Sequence record: PP596835.1
Length of the DNA: 60,633 nucleotides
Origin: Escherichia phage Dru_SM1
Strand: one strand, 5' to 3'
Shown: positions 28,089 through 55,204 of the stretch, piece by piece
Layout: the number at the start of each line of letters is the position of its first letter
Numbering within the stretch: position 1 is the first letter of the stretch
Translations under genes and position numbers: made by a program
The notes under the pieces: model-generated
What the model was told of the DNA's origin: nothing
The model's input: only the letters and a program-made list of their open reading frames with translations
Database searches by the model: none

Positions 28089-29041
28089 TAAACACGTTCT
28101 CCAATTAAAACACCGCGAAGATTTTCCCCAAAGAATGCGCAAGGTTGCGGATACAAACTAAAGTCCGCAGTCTTAACCACATTTTCAAGCAATAGCAGGA
28201 TATCAATATTGTACACTCCCGTTATTGTGCGGTCTTGTAATACGAAGCTCGCACCTTCTGCATCATCGTAATGAGTACGCGCTAGACCGTTTTCAATATA
28301 TACGCGAGGACGATCTTCTGCAAAAGGTTTAATTTTATGCAAACCCTCAAAAAGACCGGGATCAACAGGATGTGCATTGCATTGAACATTTAAAATACGA
28401 CGTATATCCGGCCACTCCGCATCAATAAGCTGTGTTCGCAACCAGCGACCTTCTGGATAATGAAATGTTACATTGTTCTTGCTAACCTGAATATGTGTCG
28501 GGTTAGCTTTAATGCGCAGTATTTCTTTAATAGCAACAGACGGTATTATGCAGTCAATAGGGAATTGATTACCAAACCAATATTCCGCAATGGTGACGTT
28601 ATTTGTAGCAAACAGGCTACCGTTATTAATCAGAATACCGCAAGCCCACGGGCGGGATGCATCTGAGCCTACAAACGGAGCAACGGACTTCACACCATGA
28701 ACGAGGCGAGCCCCATCTATTTCGTATAAATCACCTTCAGGGAATACGTGAGGCGTTTCCTTGTCAATGCAGCGTATAGCAACACGAAACGGTCCGGACT
28801 TAATATTAAGTTTACCGTTAGCCATCATTGTTAACTGTACGGTTTCGTCACAGTTTGAAATAGCTTTAATCATAGGCCCAGCTTCGGGCTTGCAATCAAT
28901 ATCCAGCTCAATAGGGCTACCCAGTGCAATAACACCGTTAAAGCCCTGTACCTGTCCATCACGGATAAGAAAGCTGGTAAGCCCTTCTACCAGTTCCTTT
29001 TTAGCGACGGACCCTTGAACAAATTTAAGAGCGTCTAACAT
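28088..29041 (-). CDS. hypothetical protein (possible polymerase accessory / sliding clamp; unverified)
   Basis: 317-aa ORF translationally coupled to the DNA polymerase gene; function guessed from position only. Confidence 0.3.
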   Translation of the reverse strand: MLDALKFVQGSVAKKELVEGLTSFLIRDGQVQGFNGVIALGSPIELDIDCKPEAGPMIKAISNCDETVQLTMMANGKLNIKSGPFRVAIRCIDKETPHVFPEGDLYEIDGARLVHGVKSVAPFVGSDASRPWACGILINNGSLFATNNVTIAEYWFGNQFPIDCIIPSVAIKEILRIKANPTHIQVSKNNVTFHYPEGRWLRTQLIDAEWPDIRRILNVQCNAHPVDPGLFEGLHKIKPFAEDRPRVYIENGLARTHYDDAEGASFVLQDRTITGVYNIDILLLLENVVKTADFSLYPQPCAFFGENLRGVLIGERV

Positions 29042-34368: not shown

Positions 34369-35169
34369 TTACAAGCCGTTCAGGGCTTCCGGTACTGGTA
34401 CAGGTACGCGACCAGTCACACCATTAAATTTCTTCCAGCGTGCATACTGGGTTTTAACGGTATCTTCGTTCAGACCATGTCGACCAGCCAGGTTCAGAAC
34501 ATAAGAGATCGGAGCAGGCTGACCCAGCGTAGCGCTAATGTGGTCCATCAGAGCCCAGGCACGACCGCAGGAAGTTTCCGGTTGCGGACGACGAACACCG
34601 TTCTGTTCCGGCATACGATTAGCTTCTTTTTCTTTCTCGCGGAGCTCTTTAGCGCGCGCTTTTTCCGCTTCTTTTTCTGCCTGTTTTGCAGCACGGATCT
34701 TGTCTTTGAAGCCTTTAATAGTAGCTTCCAGACCATCCACCAGGCCCTGAGCAGAAGTTACAGCACCGGACAGGTCTTCACCTTTAGACTTCTTAACAAC
34801 AGCTTTCAGCTCTTTCAGAGCTTCTTTAATGGTCTTCAGGTTTGCAGATCCCTGAGTTTCTGCTTCCGTGATTTGTTCAACAGTGCTTTCGTCGGTGACG
34901 GTAGCCAAAGAGTTTTTCAGAATTTCAGCAGCGTTAGCAATCGCATTAAATTTGTTTTCCGCTTCAGCGCGGATTTCAGCTTGTTTCTTTTCAGCGGCAG
35001 CTTTTTTCTCTGCTTCTTTTTTCTCTTTTGCTACGCGTGCAGCTTCAGCAGCAGCGGCTTTCTTAGCTTCTGCGTCATTCACAGTAGCTTCTTTCTTTGC
35101 AGGTTTAGCAGATTTTGCAGCGGCAGCGGCGGCTGCAGCAGCAGCTTTTTTGTCTTCAATGTTGCTCAT
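34369..35169 (-). CDS. Ala/Lys-rich protein (histone H1-like low-complexity region; possible DNA-binding protein)
   Basis: 266 aa from ATG 35169; N-terminal ~200 aa are Ala/Lys/Glu repeats (KKAAAAAAAAAAKSAKPAKKEA..., AKEKKEAEKKAAAEKK), C-terminal ~70 aa non-repetitive. Confidence 0.5.
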   Translation of the reverse strand: MSNIEDKKAAAAAAAAAAKSAKPAKKEATVNDAEAKKAAAAEAARVAKEKKEAEKKAAAEKKQAEIRAEAENKFNAIANAAEILKNSLATVTDESTVEQITEAETQGSANLKTIKEALKELKAVVKKSKGEDLSGAVTSAQGLVDGLEATIKGFKDKIRAAKQAEKEAEKARAKELREKEKEANRMPEQNGVRRPQPETSCGRAWALMDHISATLGQPAPISYVLNLAGRHGLNEDTVKTQYARWKKFNGVTGRVPVPVPEALNGL

Positions 35170-35295
35170 TCTCTTCACTCCGAATTGTTATGGGTTCGTT
35201 TGTTACCAACGGGTTAAATGTACCAAAGGATTTTGTGACACGCAACCCCTTATCTGAACATTTTTAAAAATATTTTTGATCAAGCTTAGAACTTA

Positions 35296-44959: not shown

Positions 44960-45145
44960 GTTTACCTCCTTTATATGTATTTTAATATGAAGTAAAATCA
45001 ATCTCAATAAAAAAGCGCAACGTTTTCACGCTGCGCTTAGTTTAAATAAGGTACTTGACTATTCAGCTTCCCTTATTTCCGGTAAATTATACAGCCTCGC
45101 CAAAGGCTGGTGACGGTTTGGTACATCTGGCGCCGTCGCGTTAAA

Positions 45146-45172
45146 CATCGTTCACATCGTTCACATCGTTCA
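45146..45172. repeat. tandem repeat (CATCGTTCA)x3, with a fourth copy at ~45267
   Basis: three perfect head-to-tail 9-mers inside a 345-bp non-coding gap (45008-45352). Confidence 0.8.
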
Positions 45173-45352
45173 TTAAGTTGCGGGTTTACCCTGTCCGCTC
45201 CAGGAAGCCCAGCGAAAGTAGTTGCTGTAAGGAGGTACAGCTACCGCTTTCAAGGGCTTGAGTTAAGCATCGTTCACTAAGTTAATGTTGTTAAATTGTT
45301 AAACCTCGTTAACTGTGGTTATCTTAAAGGATGCAGTCTTGAATGGCAAGCT

Positions 45353-46741: not shown

Positions 46742-49124
<2,383 letters not shown>

Positions 49125-49125
49125 C

Positions 49126-49650
49126 TTATACACCCAATTTGTTACAACCATGGTTCTTGTGAAAATTGTAATCGGTTAATGCTTTACTTACAGCCATTTG
49201 TGCATCTTCAAAAGTATCGTATACTCCAAGATATTTTGAAGTCCCGTCAACGCCTATACGAGCTTGCCATTTATTAGTAGCTTTGTGAAATGTAACTCCA
49301 TTTACTCCAGAGGTATTATTGCGTTTCTTACTTTGATTTCGTCCATTTTCTTTGTGAGTAACAAGACGCAAGTTTTCAATGCGGTCGTCGTAACGAACAT
49401 GATTAATATGGTCAATCTCATACCCTTCGGGAATGGGTCCATTATGCATTTCCCATACTATACGTGAACGACGATATAGTTTACCGTTAAGGGTAATACG
49501 AACATATCCTTTATCTGTAAGCGTACCCGCAACGCAACCTTCTTTCGCTCTTGCGCCCATATCTTTCTTCCAATACAACACTCCTTCATTATATTGGAAT
49601 ATCACCGCCCATTGTGGGAAAGCTTTAATTTCAGCGGGAAACAGTTCCAT
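49126..49650 (-). CDS. HNH homing endonuclease
   Basis: 174-aa ORF; HNH motif IDHINHVRYDDRIENLRL; first 16 residues resemble the primase N-terminus. Confidence 0.7.
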   Translation of the reverse strand: MELFPAEIKAFPQWAVIFQYNEGVLYWKKDMGARAKEGCVAGTLTDKGYVRITLNGKLYRRSRIVWEMHNGPIPEGYEIDHINHVRYDDRIENLRLVTHKENGRNQSKKRNNTSGVNGVTFHKATNKWQARIGVDGTSKYLGVYDTFEDAQMAVSKALTDYNFHKNHGCNKLGV

Positions 49651-50760: not shown

Positions 50761-51000
50761 TTAAAAGATAGTGCTAGTGGCAATTATAGTGGCATTACTG
50801 CGTATAGTGCGCCGTTGCTGGCTTTCAATGTCCTGCCACTATAACTGCACAAACGGCTATCACTACTATTTTGTATAAAGTATAAATTTTTGGGTTTTGC
50901 GTTACGTATAAATACCCCCTTTAAACTAAGAATTATAGTAGTAGTGGATAAACATAGTGAAATGCCACTATCACTACTTACTATAATTAATTTAATAAAA
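50761..51000. promoter_or_regulatory. iteron/operator-like repeat cluster (core TATAGTG / CACTAT, at least 8 copies in both orientations)
   Basis: 10-bp inverted repeat TATAGTGGCA (50785-50794) / TGCCACTATA (50833-50842); three direct ATAGTG copies at 17-19-bp spacing; TATCACTACT twice. Confidence 0.5.
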
Positions 51001-51290
51001 AATTGGGGTATCTGTACCAAAAACCTAAAACTTTCAGTCAACAGACTAAAAACGGATAGAAACTAAAAGTTAATAATTAATACCATAAATATATATAAAA
51101 TAAGGTTTTATTAGTAATTTATATAGTACCTATTGGTATTAGTTGACGTTCGCAAGGTCTGCTACAAAAAATCACAAAACTCACAAAAAGTGAAAGTTTG
51201 CAAGTCATGGCAAAATTGTTAATAGAATATAGTGTATGGATATACAGTATTATTCCAGATTCCGGAATAATTGGAATAATGGAATAAATT
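51001..51290. other. AT-rich non-coding region (candidate DNA unwinding element / divergent promoters)
   Basis: ~290 bp ORF-free and strongly AT-rich, with short direct repeats (TCACAAAA x2, GGAATAAT x3); between the two divergent gene blocks. Confidence 0.4.
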
Positions 51291-51456
51291 ATTGAACTAT
51301 TGTGATCGGAAGGTATATCAAGCTATAATCTGCGTTAAGGCAGAGAGGAGTTATTGCAGAGGTCCGGTAACACGGGCAGCCTCCACAGCAATAACAAGTC
51401 TACAGGAGGCTGTCTTACGTAGCGCGCGCAAAATTAAACTATTGTTTGGAGGGAAT

Positions 51457-51786
51457 ATGAGTCTTGAATGGGATTATAAAAAACACTGGTGGAAGAAAGA
51501 GCCAAAATGGAATAAATATTTTGAGTATAAGGATGGAGATTTATTCTGGAAGAAGGACTTTAAGAAATACGGCATATCCAAAGGTGATGAAGTTAAAGAT
51601 GTTTGTGCTCCGCATCTTCATTGTAAAATTTGCTTGGCACCTATTTGCCAAGGTGAAAACCGTAAAGTCTTAAGGGCTCGTGTCGTTTATGAAATGTTCC
51701 ACGGTCCACAGGGTAAAGGAGCTGTCTTCGGGAAGTATATCAACGACCCGAAGAATGACATGATTGAAAATCTTTATCTAAAATAG
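51457..51786 (+). CDS. degenerate HNH endonuclease-like protein
   Basis: ORF 51292-51786; likely start ATG 51457 (GGAGGG RBS); N-terminus matches the intact HNH genes (FEYKDGDLFWKK) but the HNH region is altered (INDPKNDMIENLYLK instead of IDHI(D/N)H...RIENLRL) and the C-terminal domain is missing. Confidence 0.4.
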   Translation: MSLEWDYKKHWWKKEPKWNKYFEYKDGDLFWKKDFKKYGISKGDEVKDVCAPHLHCKICLAPICQGENRKVLRARVVYEMFHGPQGKGAVFGKYINDPKNDMIENLYLK

Positions 51787-51817
51787 GGCTCCCGCAGAAG
51801 CCCGTTGGTTGATGTGG

Positions 51818-51952
51818 TTATAGAACTCGCCAGTTAGTGATTAAGCCTTGCGAGAGCATAAACTTGCCAGTCTGCTCCGCGTCGTAGCGGTTATTGAAAA
51901 CATCTTCTACTTCCCAATCGCTACCAAAATATTTTATTTCTAAAGTGAACAT
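51818..51952 (-). CDS. small hypothetical protein (44 aa)
   Basis: ATG 51952 with AAGGAG RBS at 7-nt spacing; below the ORF-track size cutoff. Confidence 0.3.
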   Translation of the reverse strand: MFTLEIKYFGSDWEVEDVFNNRYDAEQTGKFMLSQGLITNWRVL

Positions 51953-52005
51953 AATAAACTCCTTTGCTGTTAATGATATAATTATAGGTCAGCTTGAAGG
52001 AAAGA

Positions 52006-52620
52006 TCAAGCATCTAAACCATTATATTTGCGCCAGGCGTAGAACTGAATGGCTACCGTTGTTCCGTTGTAAGAAGGCATTGCTGCTTTCATTTCTTTCA
52101 GCTCCGGCGTGCGGCCCAGTTCCTTCAGAAGCTTGTCACCCATTGCCCACACTTCGGCAGTTTTTCCTTTGAGCGGCTTGCGAGCGCCATTTTTGAAATC
52201 GCAGCGAGCAGTTTTTACATCCTGTTTTGGCGCGGCAGCTTTTGGCTCTTCAATTTTGATTTCAGAAACCTGCGTGGCAGCTTTTGCATGTTTCATATCT
52301 TTCTCTTCCTCCTGCTCCAAAGCTTCGAGGCAGCTTTTGACAATTTCCGGATTTACCATCGGGCGCAGTACCGAGACGCTGGAAGCTGGCGCGGCGGTCG
52401 GTGCCGGGACTTTCTGCTCCGGCTGTTGCGCTTTTTTATGGTCGCGCAGTACCTGAAGCACTTCCTTCTCGACGATGTAAAAACCAATCTCGTCCTGATG
52501 GATTAACTGTTCGTGTGCGTCGCGTGCAACCTGACCCCAGCGAGTCTTAAGGGCACGGCGTGCATTCGTTTTCATGGTGTAGCGCATTTTGTCCTGTTCG
52601 CGGTGAGTTACTTTAGACAT
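52006..52620 (-). CDS. hypothetical protein
   Basis: ORF 52006-52665; likely start ATG 52620 with AAAGGAG RBS; Ala/Pro/Lys-rich central linker. Confidence 0.45.
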   Translation of the reverse strand: MSKVTHREQDKMRYTMKTNARRALKTRWGQVARDAHEQLIHQDEIGFYIVEKEVLQVLRDHKKAQQPEQKVPAPTAAPASSVSVLRPMVNPEIVKSCLEALEQEEEKDMKHAKAATQVSEIKIEEPKAAAPKQDVKTARCDFKNGARKPLKGKTAEVWAMGDKLLKELGRTPELKEMKAAMPSYNGTTVAIQFYAWRKYNGLDA

Positions 52621-52693
52621 GGTATAGCTCCTTTCGTTAATATTAGTTTGCTTATTACTGCCCACCGTAATGATGAGCAGTGTATAAGAAAAC

Positions 52694-52942
52694 TTATTGC
52701 ACGATTGCTACGAAATCGGCGGTTGCGATATCCATGCTTGCGAAAGCATGGATGCCATAGTCGGTGTCGTTTTCGGCGTTAAACGCTTTGAGGAACTGCT
52801 GTACTGCCGCTTTATGGTTAAGCGTTACGTCGATAGCATAGTCCCAGCTATAGACTTTGCGCTTGCCAAAACCTTTAACTGCAATGCGTGCGCCTTTGGT
52901 GTTAGTTGGTGCCAAAAATTTGGTGATGATAGAAGTAGCCAT
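52694..52942 (-). CDS. hypothetical protein
   Basis: 82-aa ORF. Confidence 0.4.
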   Translation of the reverse strand: MATSIITKFLAPTNTKGARIAVKGFGKRKVYSWDYAIDVTLNHKAAVQQFLKAFNAENDTDYGIHAFASMDIATADFVAIVQ

Positions 52943-53013
52943 AATGTAATCCTCTTTTTGTTTAAGTTGACTTATTATTGCCCAGTCAGATCAACTAGGC
53001 AAGATATAAATCA

Positions 53014-53177
53014 ACTATTTTCGCTTACATAATCCAGTGCAGCTTCGAGGAAATAAAATTCTTCCTGCTTATATAAGCTGATTGCCCACTCCAGCTGAGC
53101 GCGGGTAAGGTGGCGATATTTGTTGTCGATGCAGTAGCTGCGACCGAAGTACATAATAGTGAAGTATGAGCTGGACA
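53014..53177 (-). CDS. small hypothetical protein (54 aa)
   Basis: ATG 53177 with GGAGG RBS; more protein-like than the overlapping 72-aa ORF in another frame. Confidence 0.3.
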
Positions 53178-53396
53178 TAACGCGCCTCCAAGTGTGGTTA
53201 AGAAGTAGTACCGTGTTGCTATGGGTACATAATAGCGATGCATTGTGATATTGAATAGGCCAAACGTGCTATTTTGATATTGTTTTGCATCTAGTGAAAA
53301 TTATGCTTGCCCTGCATGTTTAGCACTAATGGCCTAACTAACATCACATCATCTGGAGTATTCGCGCAGGCGTACACATGCTTATAAGGTGGTGCC

Positions 53397-53510
53397 GGAT
53401 CGACCAGGTGGGAGCGGTGCACAGGATCGACCAGGGGCATCCGGCGCCCTGCGTGTGCGGAGCCTACCAGGTGGGAGCAGCTCCTGCGTGTGCCGGAAAT
53501 ACCAGGTGCG
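53397..53510. repeat. GC-rich degenerate direct repeats (ACCAGGTGGGAGC x2, GATCGACCAGG x2, CTGCGTGTGC x2)
   Basis: four ACCAGG(T)G units ~26-37 bp apart in a GC-rich island within a divergent intergenic region. Confidence 0.5.
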
Positions 53511-53562
53511 CGCGAGCCCATGCACTTTACAAAATATTTTTATAAAAAGTGCAAAAAGGTGT

Positions 53563-53590
53563 AGACATATGATCGGTCTAGCACTACTAT
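53563..53590 (+). promoter_or_regulatory. candidate promoter for the rightward small genes (TAGACA-N16-TACTAT)
   Basis: -35/-10-like hexamers ~50 nt upstream of the ATG at 53640; weak. Confidence 0.25.
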
Positions 53591-53639
53591 ATACACATAC
53601 CGCAAGGGTACTACAAATTAACTCAAAGGGGTTTACATC

Positions 53640-53843
53640 ATGTCTATTCGTAACGTTATCTGTGTAATGGTTGCAAACAATAATTTTGGTTTCGTAGAAG
53701 GTGCAGAGTATAAAATGGATCTTAAAACTCGTTGCATTATTAAAGGTGAAGAGGAATGGCGTGCAGTAGTAGAAGATTGCGGAGATATCTACATCTATAG
53801 TTCTGATACAATGAAAACTATCGCTGTCTTCGAATTTAACTAA
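53640..53843 (+). CDS. hypothetical protein
   Basis: 67-aa ORF with RBS. Confidence 0.4.
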   Translation: MSIRNVICVMVANNNFGFVEGAEYKMDLKTRCIIKGEEEWRAVVEDCGDIYIYSSDTMKTIAVFEFN

Positions 53844-53911
53844 GCTAACTTATACAATGGGCATTAATACAGTGCCCATTAATAAGCTAACTAATTATAA
53901 CGAGGTGTATT

Positions 53912-54097
53912 ATGTCTACGGACACTGTGAAGTCTGTAAATAATAGCAACAGAACATTTAAAGTTATGTATTATGGTCAGGACGTTGGTCAGGTCAAGGC
54001 GCCCAGCCGTATCGTGGCGGAAGAGTTCGTCCGTACAGAGATGCAACTTGGAATCGCCGATTTTGGCGCCATCGTTAAACTGGTAGAGGTGTACTAA
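53912..54097 (+). CDS. hypothetical protein
   Basis: 61-aa ORF with GAGGTG RBS. Confidence 0.4.
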   Translation: MSTDTVKSVNNSNRTFKVMYYGQDVGQVKAPSRIVAEEFVRTEMQLGIADFGAIVKLVEVY

Positions 54098-54098
54098 T

Positions 54099-54239
54099 AT
54101 GCCACGCAAATACACGCTTACACGCGCACAGCACGCGCTATTAATTGCAGCAATGCGCGCAGAATATGCAGTTCATGGCTGGCATAGTGCCATGATGCGC
54201 GGTAAAAGCATATATGCGGACATGCGCTCGCAAGGATAA
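54099..54239 (+). CDS. small hypothetical protein (46 aa)
   Basis: ATG 54099 directly after the upstream stop; basic; below the ORF-track cutoff. Confidence 0.3.
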   Translation: MPRKYTLTRAQHALLIAAMRAEYAVHGWHSAMMRGKSIYADMRSQG

Positions 54240-54730
54240 CGCACACAGCAGCACCACAGCGAGCTAAAGCTCAAAGGTAATGGTAATGCATTACCAACAC
54301 ACAACGAGCACGCTGTACCCCACAAAGCGGCGCTAATTTCAACACTCACAGGCCGTACGAGTTAACGTACAGCCTGCTCTGCTATATGCACGCCCCATAC
54401 ACAGCCAGCTCACGATATACATTAATATAATAACGAATGAAATAGATTCGTCTGGAAGAATAACAGATCTTGCAGTCACAGACCGGTCCAATGAGCCGAC
54501 TCATAGACCCCACCTAGGATCATCAGGGTACTAATAATCACCCGAGGGCGCCTTATCCATCCTGATAGTAAGTCCACGCCTAAATCTCACCTGTCACATA
54601 GCCTATCCACCTATATGCGAAGGCAGACCCGACCCACCTTAGAATCTACCCTATCAACATATTCATCATTGAAAAATCTGTGGGTTATTGCTAAAATATA
54701 GATGACAAAAAATTGATCGAAGGTATTGAA

Positions 54731-55204
54731 ATGAACTGGAATGATATATTTGAATACAGAGATGGTGTTTTGTATTGGAAGCTGAGTAGGCGATGTATAA
54801 ACGCAGGCGACAGAGCAGGATGTGTTCAAGAGGATGGATACACGAGAATAGTATTTGAAGGTAAGCAATACCTGCGACACCGCATAGTGTGGTTAATGCA
54901 CGGAAGAACTATTCCGAAAGGTATGGAAATTGATCACATTGACCATGACCGCCAAAATGACCGAATTGAAAATTTACGTTTAGTTAGTGCTGTAGTAAAC
55001 TGTCAAAATAAAGGAAAATATATCAGTAACACAAGCGGCGTCACTGGTGTAAGTTGGGACAGAAAGAATTTAAAATGGTTTGTAACTATAAGAGTGAATA
55101 AAAAGAATGTATTTTTAGGTCGTTTTGACAAATTCGATGAAGCAGTTAAGGTACGAAAGGAAGCGGAATTGCTGTATAATTTCCACGAAAATCACGGTAA
55201 ATGA
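54731..55204 (+). CDS. HNH homing endonuclease
   Basis: HNH motif IDHIDHDRQNDRIENLRL; likely start ATG 54731 (GAAGG RBS). Confidence 0.7.
   Translation: MNWNDIFEYRDGVLYWKLSRRCINAGDRAGCVQEDGYTRIVFEGKQYLRHRIVWLMHGRTIPKGMEIDHIDHDRQNDRIENLRLVSAVVNCQNKGKYISNTSGVTGVSWDRKNLKWFVTIRVNKKNVFLGRFDKFDEAVKVRKEAELLYNFHENHGK

Follow-up and report, generated by a model that had tools for sequence, protein, structure and literature searches.

Between two divergent genes of Escherichia phage Dru_SM1 (record PP596835.1; the whole stretch of 60,633 nt was analyzed and is called the window here) lies a GC-rich island with four direct copies of a unit of 19 nt, whose consensus is YGYGCCGRAAATACCAGGT. We tentatively read this island as an accessory array of sites for a sequence-specific protein that would act on the early control region, and we give this reading a rough probability of 0.45. 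The window belongs to the genus Seuratvirus (Queuovirinae) and is CAjan/CSP1-like, with CSP1, KS_A8, and CAjan as its nearest relatives. An initial annotation of the same sequence had suggested a regulator-binding array or a recombination scar. The first suggestion is the best-supported one, through the directional 19-nt unit, its palindromic core, its restriction to a single locus, and an equivalent in the sister genus Nonagvirus; that a protein binds the units, which protein it would be, and how it would affect transcription is what we infer beyond this.

All repeat copies that the initial annotation had reported at 53391-53520 were present at their coordinates. ACCAGG occurs at 53403, 53430, 53466, and 53501, always on the same strand, and the measured spacings of 27, 36, and 35 nt agree with the 26-37 bp given before. 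These are 4 of the 8 plus-strand copies of the hexamer in the 60,633 nt. Copies of ACCAGGTGGGAGC begin at 53403 and 53466, those of GGATCGACCAGG at 53397 and 53424, and those of CCTGCGTGTGC at 53448 and 53483. The described contrast in base composition was likewise reproduced, with a GC content of 0.69-0.71 in the island versus 0.36-0.38 on its flanks, and the island contains the top 100-nt GC value of the window. The four units together span 53391-53507 (bit scores are from the position weight matrix, PWM, described below):

53391-53409, plus strand: unit 1 (GGTGCCGGATCGACCAGGT), 35.4 bits, repeat families D1 and D2, contains GATC and CCAGG
53418-53436, plus strand: unit 2 (TGCACAGGATCGACCAGGG), 27.8 bits, the most divergent unit and the one missing from phage Greed
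53454-53472, plus strand: unit 3 (TGTGCGGAGCCTACCAGGT), 31.9 bits, reference copy of family D1
53489-53507, plus strand: unit 4 (TGTGCCGGAAATACCAGGT), 36.6 bits, consensus-like
53389-53524, no strand: the whole GC-rich island, equal to the segment absent from relatives with an empty site, delimited by filled/empty alignments and composition

Such repeats were absent or rare in shuffled sequence, so the array is not due to chance: dinucleotide-preserving shuffling of the island (5000 replicates) never produced an exact repeat of at least 13 nt, and any hexamer occurring four times was seen in only 0.3% of the replicates. A PWM built from 28 distinct units was informative across ~19 contiguous positions and held little information 3' of these, a length and asymmetry expected of a protein site and not of a hairpin. 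The unit core, ACCWGGT, is a 7-bp palindrome that includes a Dcm (CCWGG) site; in total, the island contains four CCAGG and two GATC, the latter in units 1 and 2. A repeat of the size of a protein site with internal symmetry, as seen in operator arrays, is therefore present. When the whole window was scanned with the PWM on both strands, the four units scored 28-37 bits and the rest of the 60.6 kb at most 8 bits, so the motif is neither a dispersed regulon signal nor a dispersed repeat. A search of the island against 5,426 E. coli genomes and 72,556 plasmids returned no match and leaves an origin from host or plasmid DNA unsupported.

The 15-mer of unit 4 was scanned against viral contigs. Most hits were chance singletons, apart from three ~60-kb contigs with three ACCAGG cores each, which proved to be Nonagvirus. 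In this genus, the array was found in 9g, JenK1, JenP2, SE1, FritzHoffmann, HdSG1, and several metagenome contigs, with two to three copies of the unit (GYGYGCCGRAAATACCAGGTARC), core spacings of 27 and 26 nt, an orientation matching that in the window, and a longer core palindrome (TACCAGGTA). It is bordered by homologues of the same three leftward genes on one side and by the first rightward gene on the other. When the 462-nt control region of the window is compared with its 605-nt counterpart in 9g, the only significant match is GTGTGCCGGAAATACCAGGT (20/20 identities, E = 2e-7, blastn-short), which aligns 53488-53507 (unit 4 plus the preceding G) with unit 1 of 9g, while the proteins encoded beside the array are 32-49% identical between the two genera. 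JenP1 carries unrelated sequence at the array position.

The metagenomic scan yielded Nonagvirus variants only and no further lineage; among these contigs, one has lost precisely one unit, and the third unit is degenerate in two others. The scan of genome contigs gave random singletons except for one contig (NZ_JPLA01000062.1, L289; 1,036 bp), which is listed under Dyella japonica DSM 16301, shows a match to the control region and array of Nonagvirus, and is probably a phage contaminant of that assembly. A gapped scan of viral contigs for three ACCAGGT copies was uninformative, swamped by apparently collagen-like coding repeats.

Within Seuratvirus, island states were read from an alignment of the region in the fetched relatives, with some records known from the BLAST table only. 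Four units of the same type (type A) are present in the window, CSP1, KS_A8, and CAjan; for CSP1C, the BLAST table gives 97.6% identity over the same 211-nt stretch. Greed has three units, and its fused unit is exactly what remains of the window sequence once the 27 nt separating the two GGATCGACCAGG copies are removed. SLUR25 and GottfriedDienst carry a second type (type B) with three to four ACCAGG units, other spacers, and another 3' tail; the BLAST match of SLUR63 is identical to that of SLUR25. Remnants occur in SeppeHuegi, KS_W4, and ECP2304, which retain one core, and in SA126VB, which retains none. Finally, KurtStettler, phiG7, Skure, slur01, yong3, PLYYY01, SA80RD, and one IMG/VR contig have empty sites (...CATATAAAGCTGCC/AAAATATTTTT, the slash marking the junction), and five more records share their two-piece BLAST pattern.

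The similarity of the empty junction to the 3' end of the type-B island (CTGTAAGCTGGTCC/AAAATA) makes the empty sites look like secondary deletions rather than unfilled insertion sites. Filled and empty junctions differ by neither inverted ends nor a target duplication. With the island present in both Seuratvirus and Nonagvirus and its absences resembling later losses, the recombination scar of the initial annotation finds no support as its origin. Recombination or slippage between the units nevertheless clearly remodels the array, as judged from Greed and the metagenome contig L225, each of which lacks exactly one unit. Changes by whole units are what would be expected of a modular array of sites. 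An association with the first rightward gene was rejected, since yong3 has this 67-aa gene and no island, and the island state does not follow the neighboring genes.

The same patchiness could reflect a neutral, unstable minisatellite, in which slippage or unequal recombination acts on a GC-rich tract of alternating purines and pyrimidines and the presence in two genera stems from ancestry plus recent exchange between co-infecting phages. Copy number ranges from 0 to 4 in Seuratvirus and from 2 to 3 in Nonagvirus, whole-unit deletions fall at short direct repeats, type-A substitutions are no rarer in units than in spacers, and island-less phages retain both predicted promoters intact. However, the 28 distinct variants retain the ACCAGG core and a large part of the 19-nt unit while the 3' spacers diverge freely, and orientation and position relative to homologous genes are equal in two genera whose control regions are otherwise unalignable. 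Nor do the units simply follow one another head to tail: they are irregularly spaced, with 7-17 nt between them, and nothing was called at the island by Tandem Repeats Finder. We consider a minisatellite unlikely on balance.

The island was correctly placed by the initial annotation between divergent genes: the starts of the leftward gene (53178) and of the rightward gene (53640) enclose a gap of 461 nt. Just to the right of the island, we also found the rightward candidate promoter that had been described there. The elements of this control region are as follows:

53229-53257, minus strand: predicted leftward early promoter P_left, TATTCA-N17-TATTAT (-35 at 53257-53252, -10 at 53234-53229)
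53562-53590, plus strand: predicted rightward early promoter P_right, TAGACA-N17-TACTAT, from a sigma-70-like consensus scan
53525-53560, no strand: AT-rich block with an 8-nt inverted repeat (TGCACTTT/AAAGTGCA), from sequence (I5 and I10) and alignment
53244-53348, no strand: operator-like 28-nt inverted repeat with arms at 53244-53271 and 53321-53348 (I2, D6), an invariant alignment block

P_left and P_right are thus predicted to stand back to back, with the island between them and upstream of both. With an assumed start at ~53597, the unit cores are centered at about -93.5, -128.5, -164.5, and -191.5 from predicted P_right. The corresponding core centers in 9g are -50.5 to -103.5 relative to a promoter-like TAGACA sequence, so that the array lies directly upstream of such a predicted site in both genera. 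The paper describing 9g predicted two promoters in the control region and nothing more there (PMC4276943). The two early promoter regions of the window are mirror images of each other: a 31-nt inverted repeat (I1) pairs 53205-53235 with 53584-53614, and the reverse complement of the P_left region shares 38/67 ungapped identities with the P_right region. The AT-rich block separates the array from the -35 element of P_right, doubles as the upstream part of this promoter, and is retained in island-less relatives; AT-rich sequence is the intergenic default here. The 28-nt inverted repeat to the left of the island has a 49-nt segment between its arms and is kept in all Seuratvirus sequences examined. 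Its TAGCAC (reverse GTGCTA) recurs in the P_right spacer at 53579, which suggests an operator common to both promoters. Neighboring small open reading frames (ORFs) received no Pfam or NCBIfam assignment, and their PHROGs matches were all of unknown function.

In the arrangement that we favor, four direct sites of ~19 bp would act in cis between P_left and P_right, inside the terminal repeat predicted below. Most likely, a sequence-specific DNA-binding protein would occupy the units and modulate the firing of one or both early promoters. The most probable source of this protein would be an early phage gene within that terminal repeat, a host factor being less likely. The array itself is accessory: its units recombine or slip against one another, so that it expands, contracts, or vanishes, and island-less phages are viable.

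Three leftward terminal-repeat genes are common to Seuratvirus and Nonagvirus (tblastn against HdSG1). Besides the 204-aa protein below, the terminal repeat encodes products of 55 aa (53011-53178) and 82 aa (52694-52942). The candidate for the binder is:

52006-52620, minus strand: 204-aa protein of the leftward operon with a homologue in Nonagvirus, a weak candidate

Its C-terminal domain of ~65 aa is conserved and recurs in a paralogue at 34369-35178 (minus strand), which has a long Ala/Lys/Glu-rich N-terminal region; both share the motif NG.R.P...W...D....LG......TV..Q...W.K.NG. AlphaFold (AF2) predicted a beta-hairpin and three helices for residues 141-200 (pLDDT ~86), and the best Foldseek matches of this domain in the PDB were the LexA winged helix-turn-helix and sigma region 4, all with E > 0.6. 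Searches of the 204-aa protein and its paralogue against Pfam and NCBIfam returned no family.

Operator arrays such as lambda OR/OL, and ParR-type repeats that also serve as operators (e.g., parC of plasmid R1), resemble the island in their clustered sites, dyad-symmetric core, proximity to divergent promoters (predicted ones in the island), variable site number, and confinement to a single locus. In contrast to these, the units of the island are directional 19-mers, GC-rich in an AT-rich region, and located upstream of the predicted -35/-10 elements rather than overlapping them. The units lie at -94 to -192 from P_right and farther from P_left.

Several observations weigh against a binding array. 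The island is missing from about half of the Seuratvirus records, which makes the array dispensable. According to the initial annotation, units that are absent or not conserved in relatives would, if their deletion also left the flanking genes unaffected, refute its reading; about half of the records indeed lack the island, while the core is kept wherever the island is present. Core spacings (27, 36, and 35 nt here; 27 and 26 nt in Nonagvirus) are out of helical phase. Among the four type-A phages, 6/76 columns vary in units versus 8/68 in spacers (p = 0.58); substitutions being no rarer in the units, purifying selection is not demonstrated at that scale. The 20/20 identity between the genera could stem from recent horizontal exchange instead of constraint. 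Every promoter is a consensus prediction, and alternative promoter predictions for 9g, including those annotated in GenBank, would transcribe across the array. Lastly, the 204-aa protein is the sole candidate binder, its modeled resemblance to helix-turn-helix domains is weak and non-significant, and island-less phages encode it as well.

Transcription across the island would be central to a different explanation, in which it acts as a small RNA or leader with hairpins displaying AAAUACCAGGU loops, for example as a protein sponge or in anti-termination. The flanks of several units can pair (e.g., CGUGUGC[...]GCGCGCG around unit 4), unit 2 of JenK1 could form a perfect stem of 6-8 bp, and, as read from the sequences, several differences between phages keep the pairing via G-U on the plus strand only. 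Upstream, weak resemblances to promoters were seen on this strand, namely TTGATA-N16-GAAAAT at 53274-53301 and TTTAGA-N18-CATAAT in 9g. Yet this pairing potential is an automatic consequence of the alternating GYGYGY flanks, the hairpins are not consistent from unit to unit, and conservation covers one contiguous 19-mer, not a pair of arms. Neither the island (E <= 10) nor the 9g region (E <= 1) matched any Rfam family. Folding energies relative to shuffles showed no excess stability (z = -0.44 for the plus strand, +1.23 for the minus strand), and no intrinsic terminator was found after the island. RNAalifold detected 0 compensatory pairs in 10 Nonagvirus sequences on both strands, a weak negative given their low diversity. 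We regard an RNA function as very unlikely. The window contains no tRNA or transfer-messenger RNA.

Other identities were considered and rejected. As the initial annotation had stated, the repeats are not a CRISPR (clustered regularly interspaced short palindromic repeats) array: the copies are just 65-77% alike and are not separated by unique spacers of repeat length. Repeats of ~30 nt, a period of ~27-36 nt, and the location in a phage genome are shared with CRISPR arrays and solitary phage units, whereas the unique spacers of those are missing. No cas genes were noticed among the annotated ORFs, and, by eye, the units seem unlike E. coli type I-E and I-F repeats. A protein-coding function was rejected for the ORFs at 53389-53667 (plus strand) and 53291-53521 (minus strand), which are broken by a 29-nt difference in Greed, by type-B islands, and by empty sites. 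Hypothetical coding sequences have been drawn over the island/promoter region in CAjan (AJT60556.1; L004 1719-1928), KS_A8 (L023 1758-1928), and KS_W4 (L022 1814-2098); because their frame is not conserved among relatives, they are probably spurious. A mobile repeat of the REP/BIME (repetitive extragenic palindrome/bacterial interspersed mosaic element) or MITE (miniature inverted-repeat transposable element) kind is contradicted by the single locus, the missing E. coli and plasmid matches, and the lack of inverted ends or target duplication. Sites for Chi, FadR, RutR, NanR, GntR, and CsrA, as well as E. coli REP elements and CRISPR repeats, compared by eye, fit some units or one genus only and were dropped. 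The three G3+ runs are too few and non-canonical for a G-quadruplex, and the alternating purine-pyrimidine tracts of 8-17 bp are too short or mixed to argue for Z-DNA.

The window has the genome layout usual for Seuratvirus: terminase and structural genes point rightward (position 12 to ~25 kb), the genes for replication and 7-deazaguanine point leftward (26.1 to 53.2 kb), and small genes point rightward again from 53.64 kb. Exact direct terminal repeats are present in the records of HdSG1 (Nonagvirus; 3,363 bp) and ECP2304 (Seuratvirus; 3,695 bp). The right boundary in HdSG1 (GCGGGGCGGCTC/TTAGATCTC) coincides with position 28,243 of 9g, a physical end identified from read starts (PMC4276943). 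When the ECP2304 repeat is projected onto the window, a terminal repeat of ~3.6 kb is predicted at ~50,968-54,555, of which the record holds one copy only. The island would lie within it, ~1.03 kb from its right boundary, whereas the Nonagvirus array is ~0.22 kb from the corresponding boundary.

Accordingly placed, the island might be a DNA-entry or packaging element, such as a T5-like injection pause past a leftward pre-early promoter or an accessory site for terminase or concatemer processing; its location inside the inferred terminal repeat, the right boundary of which matches the mapped physical end of 9g, is in favor of this. On the other hand, the distance to the terminus differs between the genera, many viable relatives are island-less, and no sequence similarity was found outside Seuratvirus and Nonagvirus. 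A terminase site of the cos/pac type was judged unlikely on the same two grounds, the unconserved boundary distance and the many phages without an island. These phages are not known to transfer their DNA in two steps. The T5 terminal repeat contains a repeat-rich non-coding "injection stop" region. Here, too, a non-coding repeat segment lies in a direct terminal repeat with small early genes and strong promoters; the T5 region differs in being >1 kb long, in having inverted repeats and DnaA boxes, and in sharing no sequence similarity with the island. Overall, we judge an entry or packaging role highly improbable. A long shot as well is a terminal-repeat control element (a T5-style entry pause or anchor) or a Dcm-methylation-sensing or decoy array that titrates a host factor. 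If an entry pause were real, the small terminal-repeat genes would be expressed before the remaining genome enters.

Several features of the terminal-repeat region and its surroundings were observed along the way. A non-coding stretch of ~470 nt (54240-54712) with a GC skew down to -0.43 holds the predicted right terminal-repeat boundary and a DnaA-box-like CTATCCACC at ~54,604. An HNH endonuclease gene was confirmed at 49126-49650 (minus strand), the ORFs at 54713-55204 and 51292-51786 (both plus strand) appear homing-endonuclease-like by eye, and relatives vary in which of these endonuclease-like genes they possess. A tblastn search with the 82-aa terminal-repeat protein, aimed at distant relatives, matched mainly unrelated large myoviruses.

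The unit length also suggests iterons, and the island could be an accessory or secondary origin or priming site, with iterons beside an AT-rich unwinding region bound by an NrS-1-like primase-polymerase/helicase or another initiator. It has the three or more direct repeats of ~17-22 bp that define iterons (four units of ~19 nt), the AT-rich block follows straight after, and the cumulative GC-skew minimum lies at ~50-53 kb. A 787-aa primase-polymerase of the phage combines an NrS-1 helix-bundle domain with a DUF3987 helicase domain. In enzymes of this kind, the helix-bundle domain recognizes short GTG-type motifs (PMC8718748), and such motifs are frequent in the island. Several points speak against an origin: GTG is too short to carry weight, AT-rich DNA is the intergenic default here, and the GC-skew turn is non-discriminating since it coincides with the switch in transcription direction. 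Moreover, the spacing is out of helical phase, the primase-helicase gene (46788-49151) is 4.2 kb away, and about half of the close relatives do without the island; iterons would show helical-phase spacing, linkage to the initiator gene, and conservation in all of its users.

An exact 9-bp tandem array stands far nearer to the replication genes, with 3.1 copies of ACATCGTTC at 45145-45172 in a non-coding low-GC stretch (45008-45352). A further CATCGTTCAC copy follows 113 nt on, near 45268, and the stretch contains several GTTAA repeats. This array looks like a classical iteron-type origin or operator and, as far as the sequence goes, a better origin candidate than the island, for which we find an origin function rather unlikely. 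In the same part of the genome, a perfect (TTTA)8.8 microsatellite at 46759-46793 extends over the stop end of the primase-polymerase gene and is preceded by an 11-nt hairpin (AATAAAGGGCC/GGCCCTTTATT).

Like known iterons (lambda ori ITN1-4, P4 ori/crr, F, P1, R6K), the island consists of three to four ~19-bp repeats that are direct, share a strand, and vary in number between relatives; it is non-coding, stands beside an AT-rich block, and belongs to a phage with its own primase-helicase. It differs in being irregular, out of phase, away from the initiator gene, dispensable, and situated between early promoters in a terminal repeat.

The papers searched on Seuratvirus, 9g, CAjan, and iggy make no mention of the array, which appears to be undescribed, yet of a familiar kind. 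Seuratvirus and Nonagvirus are model coliphages for 7-deazaguanine DNA modification. To our knowledge, early regulation, the replication origin, and terminal-repeat biology are essentially uncharacterized in both genera. A motif at the center of early control in both genera offers a probe for finding the early regulator, and the presence/absence polymorphism of the island allows isogenic comparison. In addition, the island is a marker of exchange between Seuratvirus and Nonagvirus. As merely a regulatory array or a minisatellite, it would represent ordinary biology; should it turn out to serve as an origin or in DNA entry, a basic step in the life cycle of these phages would be defined by it.

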